IMG/VR virus record: IMGVR_UViG_2671180854_000003
Coordinates: 1 to 8,663 of that record
DNA from: a virus
Lineage: Duplodnaviria > Heunggongvirae > Uroviricota > Caudoviricetes
DNA length: 8,663 nt
Direction: 5' to 3' (one strand)
The stretch's first letter is position 1; every line of letters starts with the position of its first letter. The notes beneath the pieces were generated by a model. It was not told the DNA's origin. It did not search any database and was given only the letters and a program-made list of their open reading frames with translations. Of this stretch, positions 1 through 8,405 are shown piece by piece. The position numbers were made by a program, and so were the translations under genes.

Positions 1-411
1 ATGCCTGCCCCCGTCGTCCTGATCCTTGCGGCCGGGCGTGGAGAGCGCTTTCTCGCCTCCGGGGGAAATACCCATAAGTGTATCGGCTGGCGTCAGTCCC
101 CGGAGGTTGCGCCTTATCGCTGGCCATTTGAAGAAAACGGGAGAACTTTCGACCTTGCGATTGAACCGCAGATTACGACTAATGATCTGCGTCTGATGTT
201 GAGGCTGGCTCTTGCCGGCGGAGGAATAACAATTGCCACTCAGGAAACTTTCAGGCCATATATTGAAAGCGGTAAGCTTGTATCGCTGCTTGATGACTTT
301 CTTCCACAATTTCCGGGCTTCTATCTGTATTTCCCACAGCGTCGCAATATTGCACCAAAGCTCCGCGCCCTGATTGACTACGTCAAAGAATGGCGGCAGC
401 AATTGGCTTAA
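1..411 (+). CDS. yagP: LysR-family transcriptional regulator, C-terminal effector-binding portion only (136 aa; no N-terminal HTH in window); probably a truncated gene or pseudogene
   Basis: ORF at window edge; C-terminal tail ...IAPKLRALIDYVKEW is typical of LysR-family regulators; size and position beside a tRNA-Thr fragment match my memory of the yagP locus in E. coli K-12 (not verified). Confidence 0.55.
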   Translation: MPAPVVLILAAGRGERFLASGGNTHKCIGWRQSPEVAPYRWPFEENGRTFDLAIEPQITTNDLRLMLRLALAGGGITIATQETFRPYIESGKLVSLLDDFLPQFPGFYLYFPQRRNIAPKLRALIDYVKEWRQQLA

Positions 412-1023: not shown

Positions 1024-3834
1024 ATGATAAATTTAAATCCACTTTCTTTTTCTGAATATGACTTGAACGAAATATTGAATGCCAGTCAAGATAATAAGTT
1101 AGTTCTTTTTATTGGTGCTGGTTTTTCTAAATTCAGCGAAACGGAATTAATAAAAATACCAACCTGGAGGGAGTTAATAAATGAGCTAAAAGACGACTTA
1201 GGATTGTCTGAAGAAAATGATTATTTAAAAATAGCCCAACTTTACTTTCTTCAATACGGACAAAACTCTTATGTTAAAAAAGTCAAATCAATAATTAGAG
1301 ATTTGAAACCAAGTTTTTTTCATAAGATGCTATTTGAATTAAACCCCCACTATATAATTACAACCAACTGGGATAGTTTGCTTGAAAAAACTGCACAAGA
1401 CATAGGATTGGCTTATGATTTAGTTAGTTCTGACGTGGACCTGGCACAAAGTCATTTGGACAAGAAAATTATAAAGATGCATGGGGATTTTCGACAGAAT
1501 AATTTTGTTTTTAAAGAGGATGATTACTTACAGTACAGCCAAAATTTTCCACTTATCGAAAATTTTATAAAAGGAATATTCTCAACAAACACTGTTGTGT
1601 TTTTAGGATACTCTTATAGTGATTATGATTTAAAACAGATTGTTTCATGGGTTACAACTATATCAAAAGCAACACCAAGAAAATATTTGCTCCAGAAAAA
1701 TCATGATGCAGCCCAGGCTCTTTACTTAAGAAATCATGGGATATCCTTGTTGACACCGATGAATACTGACATTAGCTATCATGATCTTTATTCAAAATTT
1801 TTCAGTGATTTCAAGCTTGTTAAAAACCAAGATGAGTTTATAAAGAGGACCCTGATCTATACTGAGTCAAAGGTAAAAAAAATAGAAGATGACCTGAGAA
1901 TGTCTGATTTTGATAAAAATAAATTGAAGAATGATATTCAATGTATTGTAACAAAAAAAATAAATAAATATGTTGATAGCAAACTAAAAGCATTAACACA
2001 ATACAAAGTATTGCTCCCTGAGCAGATCAGTAAAAAATTAACTAATAGTACCATTGATTATGATAAGTCTGGGGTTAAACTAACCTCCCACAATAATATT
2101 TTGACGACTGATTATGACGAGTATAGCAGGAAAATAAATAGCATATACCTTAATGACATTTTGAGTAAAAATACTCACTTAAAAAAGACATTCTCATCTA
2201 TTTTGGAAAAGGCATTTATAAATACAGTTAGTTATGACTCGAAACTGTATGAGGTGATTAGTTCTTCAGAATTAGAGTCTGAGCTATACAATAAGATTTC
2301 TTTCGCTTATTCAAAGGATAATGCTGAAATACTTCTTATTAACAAGGAATATGGCAAACTTCTCGATATTCTTATTTCGAAAGTAAAGCTTCATCTTAAT
2401 GAGAGAAACTATATTCTCGCCACCATTCACATGTCTAATTTTGATTATGCTTACAGGATGTTGAAGTCGGATTTACACTGTAACGGTAAGGACATTGATG
2501 AAGATTGTAAATCAATAATGGAAAGCCATACTCCATTTGAGTTTAAAAGTAAAACAATTGATTTTCCACGGGGGGTGCAAAGTGAGCTACAAGAATTAGT
2601 AAAGATGCTTGAATTTAATGAAATATACAAAGCTTACTATCGATTTGACGTTGAATCGAAGAAGAATTTAGGGTACTCACAAATAAGAAAGAGTGGTGGA
2701 ATAGCATTTTCCAATGATGAATTTAAAACAAGAGCGAAACTGTACCCTTATGTGTATTTCATTTTAGGCAACGAAATTTTAATTGAAGAATATAAAGAGG
2801 TTAAACAATTTTTCGAATTTAATATTCTTAGTAGCCTCGAACACTATCTATGCGAAGAGATATTCTATGTTAATAGAATCGATCTATTTATGTTAATAAA
2901 ATACTGCGAGACAGAAAAACTCAAAAAATTTTTAAGTAAGGTAATAAAAGACAAAATAATAATCAGCACCAGCAAACTTGACAAAAGAGAAGTTCACCAT
3001 ATTAAGAAATATTTACTCAACTCTCTCGAAAACATATGCAACCTGATTAGGTTGAAAAATAAAAATTTTATTCATACCACTTCAATAGATCGATGGACCA
3101 ATAATTTATTGATTATATTAGGATGTGTTCCGTGGAGTTCAAACCAGTTAAAGAAAATAATAAATGGTTTGCTTCCTTTGTTAGAAGGCAGAACTAATAA
3201 CATAAATATTTATGAAAACATACATAATCTTCTAGCTGTGAATGAGTTTTTGTATCAAAAATCCCATGATGATATGTTAAAAATCCTGGATGTAATACTT
3301 ATAAAAATCAATACAGGAGAGTTAAATGGTTATGACCAGCATGTAATTAACTCCAATATCTTACGAAACATTTACATATTATCAGAGAATCATAATTACG
3401 AATACAAAAACACTGAACTATTAACATTAGCGTTAACAAAAATACAATTATTTGATGATAAGTGGAAAAGATCCATCACTAAGAGTTTATTATTGAACAT
3501 CAAAAGGATTGGCTCTCCTGAGGTCGTTGACATTATAGACAAGTTTATTAACAGTAATATTTTAAACCTACCACTGGCAACAGTAAGCGATATTATGGAA
3601 TGTTTGCATTTAGTCGCAAGCGGATGTGCCATGCCTGATCAATTTCTTGAGGTTATTAACAAATTTGTTTCTGAAAACATCCCGAATAAATTAGGCGAGT
3701 TAGATTTCATTACAGCTGGTGTAGAAAGTGATTTTCCTAACTTAATTAAAAGCCTTATAAAGGATAGAGGCTTTGTTGAATTTCAAGACACATTGGACAT
3801 ATTCAATGAACGAATGCAATCTCTAAAAAAATAA
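1024..3834 (+). CDS. SIR2-like (sirtuin/NADase-type) domain protein, 936 aa: N-terminal SIR2_2-like domain (~aa 1-300) plus ~630-aa C-terminal region of unknown function; candidate single-gene anti-phage defence protein (DSR-like architecture)
   Basis: Long uninterrupted ORF; N-terminal motifs LVLFIGAGFS (aa 26-35), ITTNWD (Asn115, nt 1366-1368), KMHGD (His153, nt 1480-1482), VVFLGYSYSD match the layout of SIR2-type NAD-binding/catalytic motifs in ThsA/DSR-type defence proteins; no Walker A P-loop seen; gene is far more AT-rich (~25-33% GC on sampled lines) than flanks (~50-55%). Confidence 0.8.
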   Translation: MINLNPLSFSEYDLNEILNASQDNKLVLFIGAGFSKFSETELIKIPTWRELINELKDDLGLSEENDYLKIAQLYFLQYGQNSYVKKVKSIIRDLKPSFFHKMLFELNPHYIITTNWDSLLEKTAQDIGLAYDLVSSDVDLAQSHLDKKIIKMHGDFRQNNFVFKEDDYLQYSQNFPLIENFIKGIFSTNTVVFLGYSYSDYDLKQIVSWVTTISKATPRKYLLQKNHDAAQALYLRNHGISLLTPMNTDISYHDLYSKFFSDFKLVKNQDEFIKRTLIYTESKVKKIEDDLRMSDFDKNKLKNDIQCIVTKKINKYVDSKLKALTQYKVLLPEQISKKLTNSTIDYDKSGVKLTSHNNILTTDYDEYSRKINSIYLNDILSKNTHLKKTFSSILEKAFINTVSYDSKLYEVISSSELESELYNKISFAYSKDNAEILLINKEYGKLLDILISKVKLHLNERNYILATIHMSNFDYAYRMLKSDLHCNGKDIDEDCKSIMESHTPFEFKSKTIDFPRGVQSELQELVKMLEFNEIYKAYYRFDVESKKNLGYSQIRKSGGIAFSNDEFKTRAKLYPYVYFILGNEILIEEYKEVKQFFEFNILSSLEHYLCEEIFYVNRIDLFMLIKYCETEKLKKFLSKVIKDKIIISTSKLDKREVHHIKKYLLNSLENICNLIRLKNKNFIHTTSIDRWTNNLLIILGCVPWSSNQLKKIINGLLPLLEGRTNNINIYENIHNLLAVNEFLYQKSHDDMLKILDVILIKINTGELNGYDQHVINSNILRNIYILSENHNYEYKNTELLTLALTKIQLFDDKWKRSITKSLLLNIKRIGSPEVVDIIDKFINSNILNLPLATVSDIMECLHLVASGCAMPDQFLEVINKFVSENIPNKLGELDFITAGVESDFPNLIKSLIKDRGFVEFQDTLDIFNERMQSLKK

Positions 3835-3845
3835 AGCCACTGAGA

Positions 3846-3892
3846 TAGGGCTGCTCTCTGTCAATTACCGCTCTTGGCACATAGCAGCCCTA
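3846..3892. repeat. Perfect 10-bp inverted repeat (TAGGGCTGCT ... AGCAGCCCTA) with 27-nt spacer, in the gap between the convergent SIR2 gene and pin
   Basis: Read directly: 3846-3855 is the reverse complement of 3883-3892. Confidence 0.6.
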
Positions 3893-4054
3893 GAAATGGT
3901 GACGTATAGTCATAGATGGTCGGTGACAGGAGATGCAAATCATCTCATACAAAAATACGTAAAATCAATAACGGCTAGAAATTATTCAACACTCGCACTA
4001 TCGACATTTCACCAGCTAACCGTAGCACGTTCTTGCATACGACGTGCTACGGTT

Positions 4055-4609
4055 TCATTTATCTCCAACCGGAAACTTCTTATACAGTGTCGATATACCA
4101 ACATCATAGATGATCGCCACCTTCTGGCGAGGAACGCCTGATGCAATTAATCGCCCGGCCTGCGCCCATTGTTCTGGTGTAAGTTTGGGACGACGTCCCC
4201 CAATTCGTCCCTGTGCGCGAGCAGCTTCCAGTCCAGCTTTTGTTCGTTCAACAATCAGTTCTCGTTCCATTTCAGCCAGGGCACCCATCACATGAAAGAA
4301 AAAACGCCCCATCGGTGTGCTGGTATCAATAGCATCCGTCAGGCTGCGAAAATTAACGCCACGTTCGCGCAACTCCTCAACCAGAATGACCAGATGCCGC
4401 ATACTACGCCCCAGCCGATCCAGTTTCCAGACCACCAGAGTGTCACCTGCCGATAATGTCCTGAGCAGTTTTTTCAGTCCCGGTCTTTCGGACTTCGTAC
4501 CGCTTATCTTGTCTTCAAAAATCAGTTCACATCCTACACAGTTCAACGCATTACGTTGTAGATCGGTGTTCTGGTCATTTGTTGATACGCGAACATAGCC
4601 AATAAGCAT
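4055..4609 (-). CDS. pin: Serine-recombinase DNA invertase, Pin/Gin/Hin/Cin family (184 aa from ATG at 4609)
   Basis: Translation MLIGYVRVSTNDQNTDLQRNAL...VVWKLDRLGRSM...GRIGGRRPKL is near-identical in pattern to Pin/Gin invertases (catalytic Ser in YVRVST motif, C-terminal HTH); the ORF-track start at 4645 adds a 12-aa extension that homologues lack. Confidence 0.9.
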   Translation of the reverse strand: MLIGYVRVSTNDQNTDLQRNALNCVGCELIFEDKISGTKSERPGLKKLLRTLSAGDTLVVWKLDRLGRSMRHLVILVEELRERGVNFRSLTDAIDTSTPMGRFFFHVMGALAEMERELIVERTKAGLEAARAQGRIGGRRPKLTPEQWAQAGRLIASGVPRQKVAIIYDVGISTLYKKFPVGDK

Positions 4610-4635
4610 GGTAGATCCCCCAGGTAAAAGCAGGA

Positions 4636-4971
4636 ATGATGCCATTTGCTCGTTATTTCTGCATTTTCATAAACCTTGGTTTTGGAGAAGGTGCTAACTG
4701 GGTTATGTTACCTGGAGGAATGATAATTCAGCGTGTTTATCTTGGATTTCCTGTCGGCACCAATGTAAGACACATAACTTTCCCCCGGTCGTTTACAACA
4801 ACGAACTATTCCATCTCAATTAACTGGAATGATATCGGTACTGTAACAACTGAAACACAATCGCCAGCAAATGTGGCGGTTGTTCATCAAACAAAATCAT
4901 TAACAGGGGCCAGCATCTGGCAGGCAGGTCCCGGGGGATTTAATGTGGACATTATAGCGGTGGGGTATTGA
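4636..4971 (+). CDS. Alternative tail-fibre C-terminal cassette (Sv'-type), currently in the silent orientation; would be fused to the constant stf 5' part after inversion
   Basis: ORF encodes NLGFGEGA across the crossover site, mirroring ENLGLGEGA at the second site inside stf; followed directly by a tfa gene; the ATG at 4636 lies outside the invertible segment and is probably not a real start. Confidence 0.5.
   Translation: MMPFARYFCIFINLGFGEGANWVMLPGGMIIQRVYLGFPVGTNVRHITFPRSFTTTNYSISINWNDIGTVTTETQSPANVAVVHQTKSLTGASIWQAGPGGFNVDIIAVGY
4664..4689. other. Invertase crossover site (gix/hix-like), invertase-proximal: TTTTCATAAACCTTGGTTTTGGAGAA
   Basis: Quasi-palindromic 26-mer with AAACC-NN-GGTTT core resembling Hin/Gin recombination sites; lies ~55 bp upstream of the pin start. 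Confidence 0.7.
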
Positions 4972-4972
4972 T

Positions 4973-5401
4973 ATGTACGTATGGAGCGCTAAAGCAAATG
5001 GCTTTTTCCCCATATCGGAGAAAGAAAAATTTGAGGCATCAGGTCTGTGGCCTGATGATGGTGTAATAGTCAGTGAGGAAGAACATAAGAAGTTATTTAT
5101 GGATATTCCACCAGGAAAACAGATTGGAACACTGAATGGAAAACCAGCACTGATAGATATTCCTCAGCCGACCAAAAAGGAATTAATAGCTATTGCTGAA
5201 GTTAAAAAATCCCAATTACGGGAAAAAGCTGACAGTGAAATATCCTGGCGTCAGGATGCTGTTGATGCTGATATCGCAACTGATGAAGAAGCTACAACTC
5301 TCACCCAATGGAAGAAATACCGTGTGCTGCTGATGCGTGTTGATACGTCAACAGCACCCGATATTGAATGGCCTACGCCTCCGGCAGTTCAGGCCAGATG
5401 A
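4973..5401 (+). CDS. Tail fibre assembly protein (Tfa/Mu U-like), partner of the alternative cassette
   Basis: 142-aa ORF with C-terminal motif KKYRVLLMRVDTSTAPDIEWPTPP typical of phage tail-fibre assembly chaperones. Confidence 0.8.
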   Translation: MYVWSAKANGFFPISEKEKFEASGLWPDDGVIVSEEEHKKLFMDIPPGKQIGTLNGKPALIDIPQPTKKELIAIAEVKKSQLREKADSEISWRQDAVDADIATDEEATTLTQWKKYRVLLMRVDTSTAPDIEWPTPPAVQAR

Positions 5402-5966
5402 TATCCGGCGCGGTGCTGGTATCTGTTGCCGTCACCGCGTCAATGTAATCCAGCACGGCGTTAAGTCGGGTTGTTTCTGCCTGAGTCAGTTTCCGTCCGG
5501 CCTGTAATTTCAGCTGAATCAGACTAATGGAAGCCATTGCTGCATCAATCAGTGACTGGCGCTGTGCTTCTGCCGCGTCTACTGCGGCACTGTGTTGTGC
5601 CTCAGTGTCTGTCACCCATTTCTCACCATCCCATTTATCGTATGGCGTTAACGGTGAAATCGTGACATAACCGTCTTTGATGGCACCGATATAATCCACT
5701 GTAACAGCTGCGCCATTTTCGATTGAGTAAACAGTCTCATTGCGATGGTCTTCTTCATGGCGCCATCCCTTACCTGTAAATACTGCCACTCTTCCCGGAA
5801 TGTTTTCGCCAGGGTCAATACCAGTGGAACAGGCGGGCATACTTACGCCAGTATTAATATATTCATCAGACCAGCCCGTATACTCAGATGTTTCAGCATC
5901 ATAATAAAAACAACGCATATCGCCCGGCACTGTAGCCAGCCCATTTTCATCAAAAACAGGTTTCAT
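5373..5966 (-). CDS. Tail fibre assembly protein (Tfa/Mu U-like), partner of the currently expressed tail-fibre variant
   Basis: 197-aa ORF with C-terminal motif DTSTAPDIIWPELPEA; start overlaps stf stop (TAATG at 5964-5968). Confidence 0.85.
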   Translation of the reverse strand: MKPVFDENGLATVPGDMRCFYYDAETSEYTGWSDEYINTGVSMPACSTGIDPGENIPGRVAVFTGKGWRHEEDHRNETVYSIENGAAVTVDYIGAIKDGYVTISPLTPYDKWDGEKWVTDTEAQHSAAVDAAEAQRQSLIDAAMASISLIQLKLQAGRKLTQAETTRLNAVLDYIDAVTATDTSTAPDIIWPELPEA

Positions 5967-6712
5967 TATTTAGCCCTCACCAGAAAGTTAAATGCAATAT
6001 TTCGCGGTCTGACAGCAACAAAATTCACACCATCACCCACAGAGTTACTGGTGAAATTAAATCGTGAAAATCCTGGCTGATTTCCGGCGATGCCATCATG
6101 AAAGTTAATTGCGTGTCCCGCACCTTCGCCTATATTCCCGGCAAACTGAGAAAAGTTTGTAGCTGCCTGCCAGCTTAATAATTCGCGACCACCGTCTGCA
6201 CCTCGCCCGTCATCCCAGATACGAATGAAATCACCGCGGGCTTCAGGTAATACCAGCGAAGGAAACACTTTCGCCAGCACAGGATAATCAGTGGCAGAGA
6301 ATTTCGCGCCGTTGAACTTCAAAAACACCATACTGGACCAGCTGTCGATTACAGTATTTGGCATTGCAGCGGACGGCCAGAAGAACGGAACGCCAATAGC
6401 TGGAGCACCTTCTCCCAAACCAAGGTTTTCGAGAGCTGTTTTCACCGTGCCATCCGATTTGATATCGCCAAACGGATTCTTGCGGCTTAACAGCAGCGCA
6501 CGAAGCGCGGTAAGCAGCTGGTCGTGCCTCTCCTTCTCCAGGCTGGCACCGGATGCCTCCACCACGCTACAAAGCTCTTCCTGCAACATGTCAAAGTAGT
6601 CATCATCCAGATCGGTGGCAGGCGTGCCGGTCTGGGGGTTGCCACGGGTAAAACCGTTCTTACCCGCGCCGAACTTATCCTTCTGCGCGGTTTTCGTGTC
6701 TATGCGATGCAT
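5966..6712 (-). CDS. Short side tail fibre protein (248 aa): constant N-terminal part (outside the invertible segment) fused to variable C-terminal part (inside it)
   Basis: N-terminus [20 protein letters not shown]... and glycine-rich body typical of e14/Mu-type tail fibres; crossover site lies inside the ORF at aa ~93-101; followed by a translationally coupled tfa. Confidence 0.85.
6410..6435. other. Invertase crossover site (gix/hix-like), distal, inside stf: TTCTCCCAAACCAAGGTTTTCGAGAG
   Basis: Its reverse complement matches the 4664-4689 site at 21 of 26 positions; central dinucleotide AA versus TT shows the two sites are in inverted orientation. Confidence 0.7.
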
Positions 6713-6715
6713 GGA

Positions 6716-7300
6716 TTACTCCGGATATTTAAAAATTACGTAGGTATGAGACGGACAGAGTTTGTTAAGCACACATTCGACAACGGTATCGCCCCAGATA
6801 CGCAGTGCGGAATCACAGGGATCGCCACATGTCATCCAGGTGGTGTTTGTGGCGGCTGGCATGTTGACCTGCCAGTAATACCGCCATTCCGGCGCATTCA
6901 CCGCGTCAGTACAGGCCGATGAGCAGGTGAACGTGCTTTTGTCGTATCGCGTGATGGTAGCGTCTGGTCTGCCCAGGGCAGCAAGCTGTGCAAGATAAAA
7001 ATTCTCGTTGATGCCGCCCGCCAGGTTAACCTTCGCATCCAGCCGTTGCTGACGCTGGCGAAGGGTCTGTGTCCCTGCGGGAATACATTCATCCGGCAGA
7101 CCGCACAGACGCTCCCAGCGGTTTATCAGTTCGGTGGTGGTGCGCGGATCCAGCTCCCGCATCAGGGCATCCGCACGCTGATGAACGCGGGTTAATGACG
7201 GTGCCGCACCGGCAATCGACGGATCGCTGGCTGACCACGCCGGACCGGGGGGCAACAGTGCCGACAACAGACGGATGTAATCATCGTTTGTCACGTCCAT
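6716..7300 (-). CDS. ymfQ: Phage tail/baseplate protein, YmfQ/DUF2313 family (Mu gp48 / P2 gpI-like position), 194 aa
   Basis: 194-aa ORF immediately upstream of stf with a 3-nt gap (translational coupling); sequence beginning [22 protein letters not shown] recalls the e14 YmfQ family (from memory). Confidence 0.7.
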
Positions 7301-7449
7301 GAAATCGTCCCCAGTACCGCCAGTTCATTTTTTGCAATGGAGATATTGTCTGCCGGTGCAAGCAACTGATGGCTGTATTCCCCGTTCGCACCGGAAATCG
7401 CCTCACTGATACGCGATACCTTCAGTTCTCCCTGCGGATATGGGCAGCT
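7291..7449 (-). pseudogene. Probable 3' remnant (~52 codons) of a baseplate-J-like tail gene, truncated at its 5' side
   Basis: Open frame on the minus strand from the Rz stop down to a TGA at 7291-7293 that overlaps the ymfQ start by 8 nt (typical tail-operon overlap); no start codon or 5' part present; identity as J-like is inferred from gene order only. Confidence 0.3.
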
Positions 7450-7911
7450 CTATCTGCACTGCTCATTAATATACTTCTGGGTTCCTTCCAGTTGTTTTTG
7501 CATAGTGATCAGCCTCTCTCTGAGGGTGAAATAATCCCGTTCAGCGGTGTCTGCCAGTCGGGGGGAGGCTGCATTATCCACGCCGGAGGCGGTGGTGGCT
7601 TCACGCACTGACTGACAGACTGCTTTGATGTGCAACCGACGACGACCAGCGGCAACATCATCACGCAGAGCATCATTTTCAGCTTTCGCATCAGCTAACT
7701 CCTTCGTGTATTTTGCATCGAGCGCAGCAACATCACGCTGACGCATCTGCATGTCAGTAATTGCCGCGTTCGCCAGCTTCAGTTCTTTGGCATTTTTGTC
7801 GCGCTGGGCTTTATAGGTAATGGCGTTATCACGGTAATGATTAACAGCCCATGACAGGCAGACGATGATGCAGATAACCAGAGCGGAGATAATCGCGGTT
7901 ACTCTGTTCAT
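7450..7911 (-). CDS. Rz: Rz-type i-spanin (153 aa from ATG at 7911)
   Basis: Translation [41 protein letters not shown]... closely matches lambda Rz as I recall it; start overlaps the endolysin stop (ATGA). Confidence 0.9.
7509..7691 (-). CDS. Rz1: Rz1-type o-spanin lipoprotein (60 aa), embedded in the +1 frame inside Rz
   Basis: Translation [26 protein letters not shown]...PPPPPAW... with lipobox (VVGC) and proline-rich region, as in lambda Rz1. Confidence 0.85.
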
Positions 7912-8405
7912 TGCTGACCCCACAAACAGATTTCACGCTCAATCTCACGACGAGTCATGAGACCTTTCCATTGCTTACCGCCAGCATATGTCCAGCGACG
8001 TAACTGATCACATGCGCCTTTGATATCGCCCTGGTTTATTTTGCGAAGAAGCGTCGATGTTCTGAAATTGCCAGCACCCACGTTGTAAACGAATGAGTAA
8101 AGAGCGCCGCGCGTTGTTTCCGGTATATCGACTTCGATGTATGGGTTAATTTGTCTGGCGACAGTGGCAAGGTCTTTATTCAAGAGTGCTTTGCATTCTG
8201 CTTTGGTATACGTTTTACCGAGCATGATGTCTTTTCCTGTATGCCCGTGACATACGGTCCATACACCAACAATATCTTTGTATGGTATGTAGCTGACACC
8301 TTCCAGACCATCGTTACCACTTGGGCCAGTGATTAACACTGATGCTATAGCAATTGCTCCGCCACCAATAGCAGCAGCAACGGCTTTTCGTAATGATGGA
8401 GGCAT
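7908..8405 (-). CDS. SAR-type endolysin (phage lysozyme, P21 R / DLP12 RrrD-like), 165 aa
   Basis: N-terminal signal-anchor-release segment [30 protein letters not shown] followed by lysozyme body; near-identical to P21-type endolysins from memory; start overlaps holin stop (TAATG). Confidence 0.9.

Follow-up and report, generated by a model that had tools for sequence, protein, structure and literature searches.

In the window, as we call the whole stretch of DNA analysed here (8663 bases), a gene for a serine DNA invertase, pin, lies beside a segment bounded by two inverted crossover sites, and this segment holds two tail-fibre C-terminal cassettes, each accompanied by its own tfa chaperone gene (Table 1). 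An earlier note on this DNA had described about 1.75 kb with two tail-fibre C-terminal cassettes and two convergent tfa genes, a distal site located inside stf, and an inversion that would exchange the C-terminus of Stf together with its chaperone. All of this was borne out, given that the segment measures 1746 bp, that the cassettes and chaperones were recognized by Pfam and PHROGs, that the crossover point is near codon 97 of the 248-aa stf ORF, and that the reading frame is kept when the segment is inverted in silico.

Table 1. Genes, crossover sites and other features of the inversion switch, with their positions in the window
Feature	Position	Strand	Matches and remarks
pin, serine DNA invertase, 184 aa	4055-4609	-	Resolvase (PF00239) 1.5e-51; HTH_7 (PF02796) 5.6e-13
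Putative homologue of the recombinational (Fis) enhancer	4524-4591		pin nt 19-86, 5' end of pin
Pin-proximal ORF, 111 aa	4636-4971	+	Leader from outside the segment (MMPFARYFCIFINLG) fused to a gp53-like tail-fibre C-terminal cassette
Pin-proximal crossover site (pix)	4664-4689		TTTTCATAAACCTTGGTTTTGGAGAA; central dinucleotide 4676-4677
Invertible segment	4677-6422		1746 bp between central dinucleotides; 1720 bp between sites
tfa, tail-fibre assembly chaperone, 142 aa	4973-5401	+	Caudo_TAP (PF02413) 6.6e-33; phrog_188 2e-54; paired with the gp53-like cassette
tfa, tail-fibre assembly chaperone, 197 aa	5373-5966	-	Caudo_TAP (PF02413) 1e-27; phrog_105 8.8e-85; paired with the currently expressed cassette
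Stf variable C-terminal part, present orientation (collar/StfE-type)	5966-6422	-	PHROG tail fibre/tail collar: phrog_3100 5.7e-57, phrog_523 1.6e-42
stf-internal crossover site (pix)	6410-6435		TTCTCCCAAACCAAGGTTTTCGAGAG; central dinucleotide 6422-6423
Constant stf N-terminal part, ~97 codons	6423-6712	-	phrog_1396 9.3e-54 over residues 1-103
ymfQ, Mu gp48-like baseplate wedge	6716-7300	-	Phage_Mu_Gp48 1.4e-26; phrog_203 1.8e-84

The constant N-terminal part of Stf is nearly identical (~98%) to the N-terminus of K-12 StfP, and the variable part to which it is presently joined is homologous to the variable part of K-12 StfE. The two convergent tfa genes overlap by 29 bp. After inversion in silico, the constant part reads in frame into a 193-aa Stf ending in AVGY*, with a tfa gene directly after it, and this flipped protein is the one annotated in strain I4 as WP_047671663.1. 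The pin-proximal cassette, where the 111-aa ORF matches the Pfam family Gp53-like_C (PF21882, 6.9e-06), is not simply silent, since an ATG located outside the segment, at 4636, and accompanied by an AGGA Shine-Dalgarno opens an StfE-like ORF in front of it. Its leader has 15/20 residues in common with the beginning of K-12 StfE, and in the inverted arrangement in silico it reads into the other cassette to give 165 aa.

Crossover sites, invertase and putative enhancer

The coordinates and sequences given before for the two 26-bp sites held, as did their inverted orientation and their match of 21/26 positions after reverse-complementing one of them. The AAACC-NN-GGTTT core attributed to them occurs twice in the window, exactly in these two sites and nowhere else. 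Read from the segment side, the proximal site is TTCTCCAAAACC-AA-GGTTTATGAAAA, differing by 2 nt from the pin-proximal pix of e14, and the distal site is TTCTCCCAAACC-AA-GGTTTTCGAGAG, identical to the pix inside stfP of K-12 e14; both therefore have the same central dinucleotide AA, that is, a matched core. A search pattern derived from gix, cix and pix (TTCTCNNAAACCAAGGTTTNNGANAA, with up to 3 mismatches allowed) matched only these two sites in the window, the proximal one with 0 mismatches and the other with 1, where the chance expectation was 0.00 (200 shuffles). The alignment to known family sites that had been suggested was also carried out, and the sites align with pix, with gix of Mu, and with cixL and cixR of P7 as TTCTCNNAAACC-AA-GGTTTNNGANAA. 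The best inverted repeat returned by a repeat finder (25 nt, 96% complementary, 4671-4695 / 6404-6428) extends 6 bp further into the segment, the outer half-sites being divergent, and it is thus asymmetric about each site. A chance inverted repeat was rejected, its expectation in shuffles being 0.00.

The Pin protein shares 95% of its residues with K-12 PinE, 79% with Cin, and 77% with Gin, it keeps Ser9 and all the invariant core residues in the comparison with these three, its gene is free of frameshifts or stops, and its best matches among solved structures are those of Gin (3UJ3/4M6F, E=3.5e-93). The ATG of pin at 4609 and the base at which the proximal site begins are 54 nt apart, in agreement with the ~55 bp estimated earlier. 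The mechanically longest pin ORF starts at ATG 4645 and has 196 aa; the RefSeq annotation of relatives has the 555-nt form.

A recombinational enhancer was expected in the 5' end of pin, and a homologue was found there that aligns without gaps to the “enhancer” annotated in P7 cin, with 63/68 positions identical in K-12 pinE and 52/68 in gin as well as in the annotated cin enhancer. It contains two Fis-like 15-mers of the G...C type at conserved positions, 4574-4588 (GTATCAACAAATGAC) and 4525-4539 (GTGTAGGATGTGAAC), with their centres 49 bp apart in the register chosen in the analysis, and the distance of 95.5 bp from the centre of the first to the centre of the site is the same in Mu gin and K-12 pinE. 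In the enhancer interval (codons 1-33), synonymous-codon conservation is not raised compared with the rest of pin, and the enhancer is therefore called by homology and geometry, as a putative Fis-binding element. A pin promoter overlapping the proximal site, as had also been proposed, found weak backing: no sigma-70 consensus match of at least 9/12 was found between pin and the site, and in a relaxed scan the best candidates reached 7/12, with TTCTCC-15-GAAAAT coinciding with the site.

By analogy with the rest of the family, the two pix sites would be bound by Pin dimers, and a synaptic complex would then be assembled by the Fis-bound enhancer within the first ~90 bp of pin. Pin would cleave the central AA of each site, and a 180-degree rotation of one half followed by religation would leave the segment inverted. 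The predicted outcome is an exchange of the C-terminal cassette and adjacent tfa that join two fixed starts, namely, the constant stf N-terminus downstream of ymfQ and the short leader ORF from 4636 beside pin. For the source strain itself, we infer both the expression of Pin and a dependence on Fis.

Relation to e14 and other inversion systems

We estimate at about 0.9 the probability that this stretch carries an e14-type P-segment inversion switch of the Hin/Gin/Cin/Pin family. The e14 P segment of E. coli is present here as an intact copy, comprising the Pin invertase, two crossover sites and two tail-fibre cassettes, and as such it is an already known and ordinary system. The P inversion of e14 was reportedly described in 1984-85, by van de Putte et al. 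in 1984 and by Plasterk and van de Putte in 1985, and both of its orientations occur across hundreds of sequenced E. coli genomes.

The window element and K-12 e14, also a defective prophage, have in common the order ymfQ, stf, tfa, convergent tfa plus stf', pin, and a cargo gene, as well as the same leader ORF beside pin. They differ in their locus (paoD/yagP for the window element, icd for e14), in their cargo (a 936-aa SIR2-family protein vs. mcrA), and in the length of the segment (1746 vs. 1827 bp, centre to centre), and the gp53-like cassette with its tfa is of different alleles from those of K-12, having no DNA similarity over 4691-5353. Unlike e14, the window element breaks off at baseplate J, where it adjoins lambdoid lysis genes. 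Its segment is in the “inverted” state when compared with the MG1655 reference.

The G segment of Mu with Gin is similar in that the invertase is encoded outside the segment by a gene whose 5' end is beside a site, at equal spacing in a gap-free alignment, and also in its 26-bp sites with the AAACC-NN-GGTTT core, in having an S/U-type tail-fibre C-terminus plus chaperone in each cassette, and in the 77% identity of the proteins; on the other hand, Mu is a functional phage, the central dinucleotide of gix is GA instead of AA, and the G segment has ~3 kb, with far longer tail-fibre genes. The C segment of P1/P7 shares the 79% identical invertase, the AA core of cix, the alternative tail-fibre C-termini and, in P7 cin, the annotated enhancer within the gene's 5' end, but it is the 3' end of cin, not the 5' end, that lies beside cixL, and the segment has ~4 kb. 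In the H segment of Salmonella, hin is located inside the segment, and the flip moves a promoter for flagellin genes, with no coding-cassette swap. The Hin enhancer is placed ~100 bp from the nearest site. Hin belongs to the same recombinase family and has the Fis/enhancer mechanism in common (PMC3798978).

Inversion isomers in related strains

Assemblies record only one orientation of segments such as this one. The switch is almost certainly active, judging from near-identical and oppositely oriented copies in other strains. In E. coli I4, window positions 4671-6428 appear reversed with 1757/1758 identities between collinear flanks of 99.1-99.8% identity, and the flipped junction is identical at 600/600 positions. 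A SNP of the inner half-site travels with the segment in I4, which places the crossover at site positions 8-19, and since the two copies differ by 1 nt in 1758 and yet are inverted, the inversion is recent. The ETEC strains E1433 and E54 carry exact reverse complements of each other (1746/1746) between flanks at least 99.96% identical, and there the identity of the two sites ends at position 14, with the crossover mapping to site positions 8-14 (AAACCAA), an interval of 7 bp that includes the central dinucleotide; the window segment is of equal length to the E1433 copy and 98.7% identical to it. A further pair, L012 and L016, is inverted over 1885/1885 positions, with flanks identical at 4878/4878 and 1822/1822. 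Conservative inversion at the site cores is thus seen in relatives I4, E1433/E54 and L012/L016, and a junction census found all four junction types, in 21 to 229 of the 5426 complete E. coli genomes. The exact arrangement of the window (SIR2 cargo, cassette pair and Rz junction) is absent from these 5426 genomes, and the isomers are therefore near relatives rather than the same strain.

These orientation differences could in principle come from RecA-dependent recombination between short inverted repeats instead of Pin, given that the 25-nt, 96% inverted repeat exists and that 25 nt is close to the shortest length that homologous recombination allows. We consider this extremely improbable and have rejected it, because the crossover is narrowed down to 7-12 bp at the core (I4, E1433/E54), and the 7-bp interval of E1433/E54 is far too short for such recombination; besides, the segments have been inverted exactly and conservatively at the position of family cleavage. 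In K-12, moreover, where the e14 P segment is ~30% inverted in wild-type cultures, deletion of pinE locks the segment (Kirigo et al. 2025, PMC12529663).

Truncation of the element and possible present roles

The gene ymfQ is the last structural gene remaining upstream of stf. In relatives, baseplate J precedes ymfQ, whereas here, ~140 bp of baseplate J is left, and this remnant is joined to a lambdoid Rz gene; the baseplate-J/Rz junction (7420-7460) has no covering match in the 5426 complete E. coli genomes and no exact match among the GTDB species representatives. Exact matches of the YmfQ protein are all in intact-prophage contexts. Because the element is truncated just upstream of ymfQ, the switch probably no longer serves its classical purpose of alternating the host range of virions, and host-range switching is ruled out as a present role if the virion genes are gone. 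The retention of a complete switch in a gutted prophage had been regarded as notable, and it is not, given that K-12 offers the textbook case in e14, a defective prophage with a P segment that inverts (PMC12529663).

The same truncation, together with the absence of a consensus promoter upstream of pin and the loss of pin to IS26 at the same locus in I4, which tells us that decay of the switch does occur, would fit a switch that looks intact while Pin is unexpressed or inactive in the source strain and the segment has stopped inverting. We find this quite improbable, though less so than RecA-driven flips, since pin has no frameshift or stop and stays 95% identical to the active PinE, both sites have a matched core, and the I4 inversion is recent; furthermore, the equally defective e14 of K-12 still inverts, and Pin-family invertases elsewhere in the cell can act in trans (PMC12529663).

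If the e14-type switch is active, as we favour, its inversion might serve to set the distal domain on the pin-proximal leader ORF, producing a small protein that blocks the adsorption of incoming phages, the role reported for StfE2 of the K-12 e14 in the PinQ/StfE2 system (Kirigo et al. 2025, PMC12529663). Besides this published precedent, such a role would be in keeping with a leader ORF that is conserved with K-12 stfE and begins outside the segment, where it has an ATG and a Shine-Dalgarno of its own, with the StfE2-like configuration of the window, where the leader is fused to the gp53-like domain, and with the neighbouring cargo, whose SIR2 domain is ThsA-like and whose slot is occupied in relatives by mcrA, Avs2 and other defence genes. 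Nevertheless, we judge it unlikely, and we likewise doubt that the truncated element kept the switch because it gates an anti-phage function rather than virion host range: the precedent is a single study, no promoter was found for the leader ORF, and no PADLOC model matched either Stf ORF. In addition, BLASTP of K-12 StfE2 against the 111-aa ORF aligned only the 20-aa leader, the gp53-like domain of the window not being alignable beyond it, and the two proteins, although both gp53-like by Pfam or annotation, are different alleles.

Were the defence role true, the window would now stand in an “on” configuration resembling that of StfE2, with a gp53-like domain whose sequence is not related to the K-12 one, and the switch, by sitting beside the SIR2 defence gene, would form with it a small defence island of a specificity unlike that of PinQ/StfE2. 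If the 2025 report of adsorption-blocking chimeric Stf fragments holds, such allelic variants would be candidates for different blocking specificities. The pin-proximal cassette is mislabelled in places in RefSeq, where it appears as “integrase”, as “hypothetical protein”, or as a frameshifted gene.

Crossover sites and their surroundings

The system is the Pin switch of e14, the cryptic prophage of E. coli K-12, and is already known as such, the gene order of the K-12 P region being the same as that of the window (table). We confirmed what the earlier note had observed, and its interpretation is supported with corrections. The two 26-bp pix sites lie in inverted orientation where they had been placed, with the same 21/26 match, and they are the only occurrences of the AAACC-NN-GGTTT motif in the window; a pattern derived from gix, cix and pix also matched at these two sites only, against 0.00 matches expected (200 shuffles). 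From the best inverted repeat returned by a repeat finder (25 nt, 96% complementary, 4671-4695 / 6404-6428) it follows that site identity runs 6 bp into the segment and is lost in the outer half-sites, and in this inward extension both cassettes encode ...GEGA.... Viewed from the segment, both sites have AA as central dinucleotide (4676-4677 and 6422-6423), so that 1746 bp separate the crossover points. The sites also align to the known family, as the window sites, e14 pix, Mu gix (TTCCTGTAAACCGAGGTTTTGGATAA) and P7 cixL and cixR share TTCTCNNAAACC-AA-GGTTTNNGANAA on the segment side, with the gix core being GA. No base differs between the stf-internal site and the pix inside stfP of K-12 e14, and the pin-proximal site differs from its e14 counterpart in two bases, the window core thereby being the better palindrome.

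Features of the window around the invertible segment
Feature	Coordinates	Strand	Remark
LysR pseudogene	1-411		adjoins paoD
SIR2-family gene	1024-3834	plus	936 aa
pin	4055-4609	minus
111-aa ORF	4636-4971	plus	gp53-like C-terminus
Pin-proximal site	4664-4689
Invertible segment	4677-6422		1746 bp
Second tfa	4973-5401	plus
tfa	5373-5966	minus
stf	5966-6712	minus	248 aa
stf-internal site	6410-6435
ymfQ	6716-7300	minus	Mu gp48-like
Baseplate-J gene, 3' remnant	about 7300-7440	minus	~140 bp
Rz/Rz1	7450-7923	minus
Lysozyme	7908-8405	minus

Upstream of ymfQ, UMNK88 and similar relatives carry a complete Mu-like baseplate module, whereas in the window this module is deleted and lambdoid lysis genes stand instead. 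At the junction (7437-7452), the baseplate-J remnant is joined ~10 nt downstream of the stop codon of the lambdoid Rz gene, which is rzpD-like and 100% identical to many E. coli. Neither an IS element nor a pix-like sequence was found at the joint, and the junction had no match in 5426 complete E. coli genomes or in GTDB species representatives. Lysozyme-Rz and ymfQ-stf-tfa are thereby on one strand, and ymfQ-stf-tfa could be transcribed by same-strand read-through from the lysis genes. At the left edge, the ORF covers the substrate-binding, C-terminal portion of a regulator of the LysR type; in relatives it is annotated as a pseudogene without the N-terminus, beside paoD, and this remnant shows where, at the pao/yagP locus, the element borders on the chromosome.

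Inversion isomers and reading frames

The segment is found in both orientations among related genomes. In E. coli I4, which has the same cassette pair, window 4671-6428 is matched in reverse (1757/1758) between flanks collinear with the window on both sides (99.1-99.8%), and I4 matches the stf junction predicted for the flipped state at 600/600. Site position 7 holds the only difference between the inner half-sites (A/C); it moved with the segment while the outer differences stayed, which places the exchange within site positions 8-19. ETEC E1433 and E54 share flanks of at least 99.96% identity, and the stretch from one central dinucleotide to the other (1746 bp) matches 1746/1746 as reverse complement, the crossover lying in AAACCAA (site positions 8-14). 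Two full-prophage contexts (L012 and L016) agree at 4878/4878 and 1822/1822 in the flanks and at 1885/1885 in the segment when inverted. The four possible junctions, searched with 600-bp probes, were covered in 83, 71, 229 and 21 of 5426 complete genomes. In K-12, ~30% of e14 segments are inverted in wild-type culture, and deletion of pinE locks the segment, which is a substrate of PinQ and PinR as well (PMC12529663).

The proposal that inversion swaps the C-terminus and its chaperone held in silico: flipping 4677-6422 puts the gp53-like cassette in frame behind the constant Stf N-terminus (~97 codons), giving a Stf of 193 aa that ends just before this cassette's own tfa. The leader ORF, whose sequence MMPFARYFCIFINLG is homologous to the K-12 stfE start, begins outside the segment (4636) with an AGGA Shine-Dalgarno, and therefore the pin-proximal cassette is not strictly silent; after the flip, the leader ORF runs into the other cassette (165 aa). 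At present, a StfP-type (gp53-like) domain is attached to the leader and the StfE-type (collar) domain to the constant part, which is the inverted state by comparison with the MG1655 reference.

RefSeq labels the pin-proximal cassette variously as "integrase", "hypothetical protein", "phage tail protein" or a frameshifted/partial pseudogene (relatives' loci L001 7639-8050, L005 5550-6011, L011 7296-7757), which reflects the orientation caught by assembly and not real decay. In I4 (L005 5347-5487), pin is cut to 141 bp by an IS26 belonging to a qnrB19/tetR(A) resistance array inserted at the position of the window's SIR2 gene; this copy could flip only if a different invertase were supplied in trans.

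Pin, its putative enhancer and candidate promoters

Pin starts at ATG 4609 and is 184 aa long, with 95% identity to K-12 PinE, 77% to Gin and 79% to Cin; it retains Ser9 and the whole invariant core. The recombinational enhancer, which could not be made out by eye inside the 5' end of pin, is probably represented by a homologous interval at 4524-4591: pin nt 19-86 align without gaps to the interval annotated as cin enhancer in the P7 record (nt 19-86 of the gene), with identities of 63/68 to pinE, 52/68 to gin and 52/68 to cin, against ~70% in the rest of the gene. Two Fis-like G...C 15-mers with A/T-rich centres occupy pin nt 22-36 and nt 71-85, positions that are conserved, with 49 bp from centre to centre in the register used here, and the TAATG tract found between the Hin Fis sites is present as well. 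The first of these centres is 95.5 bp from the proximal site centre, a distance shared exactly with Mu gin and K-12 pinE and in agreement with the ~100 bp from hixL to its enhancer (PMC3798978). Synonymous-site conservation over the enhancer interval gave no added support.

The suggestion that the pin promoter overlaps the proximal site fared less clearly, as the best site in the pin promoter scan scored below 9/12 to the sigma-70 consensus. Relaxed scanning gave two orientation-independent candidates at 7/12, the first (TTCTCC-15-GAAAAT, 4689..4663) coincident with the site and the second, which has a TG extension, immediately outside it; judged from these motifs, the overlap is plausible. 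Directly past the pin stop codon, at 4018-4054, the repeat finder detected a perfect 13-bp hairpin (AACCGTAGCACGT ... ACGTGCTACGGTT, 11-nt loop) that leads on the plus strand into a run rich in T, which may be a terminator between the convergent SIR2 and pin genes.

Present role and variants of the locus

The earlier note had considered a complete switch in a gutted prophage notable, but such survival in a defective prophage is what the prototype itself shows and not an anomaly. Given that baseplate and tail genes are missing upstream of ymfQ, alternation of virion host range is unlikely as the present role. Three options remain: a still active switch that is a functionless remnant, a locus that provides Pin in trans together with cassettes with which incoming phages could recombine, or a defence role. 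The last is modelled on K-12, in which StfE2, a chimera fused to the leader, is reported to block adsorption of T2 (2025 report, PMC12529663); the window has the required architecture and a SIR2 defence-type gene adjoins the switch, but the distal domain here bears no sequence relationship to that of K-12 StfE2, and we consider such a role improbable.

The slot just downstream of pin holds differing defence-type cargo by strain (the window and relatives' loci L004, L006 and L012-L021): mcrA/HNH in K-12 and others, the 936-aa SIR2 protein in the window and in UMNK88, and elsewhere Avs2, a LEM-3-like GIY-YIG gene with AraC, a RES NAD+ phosphorylase or a TrlF-like ATPase. The SIR2 protein matches Thoeris ThsA in its SIR2 part only (residues 15-230, 5.5e-29), the ~700 C-terminal residues being without assignment.

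In an ETEC O6:H16 lineage (L006 6679-9632 in E1433; L010 and L011 at the same coordinates), the counterpart of window 3868-6423 has the same 1746-bp segment between two outward-facing pin genes, of 184 aa beside Avs2 and of 172 aa beside the LEM-3-like GIY-YIG gene, without the stf constant part and ymfQ. Its second site is TTCTCC[C/A]AAACCAACATTTATGAAAA. The arrangement resembles what would arise if two e14-like elements had recombined at their pix sites in a Pin-type reaction, and its segment still flips between sibling isolates.
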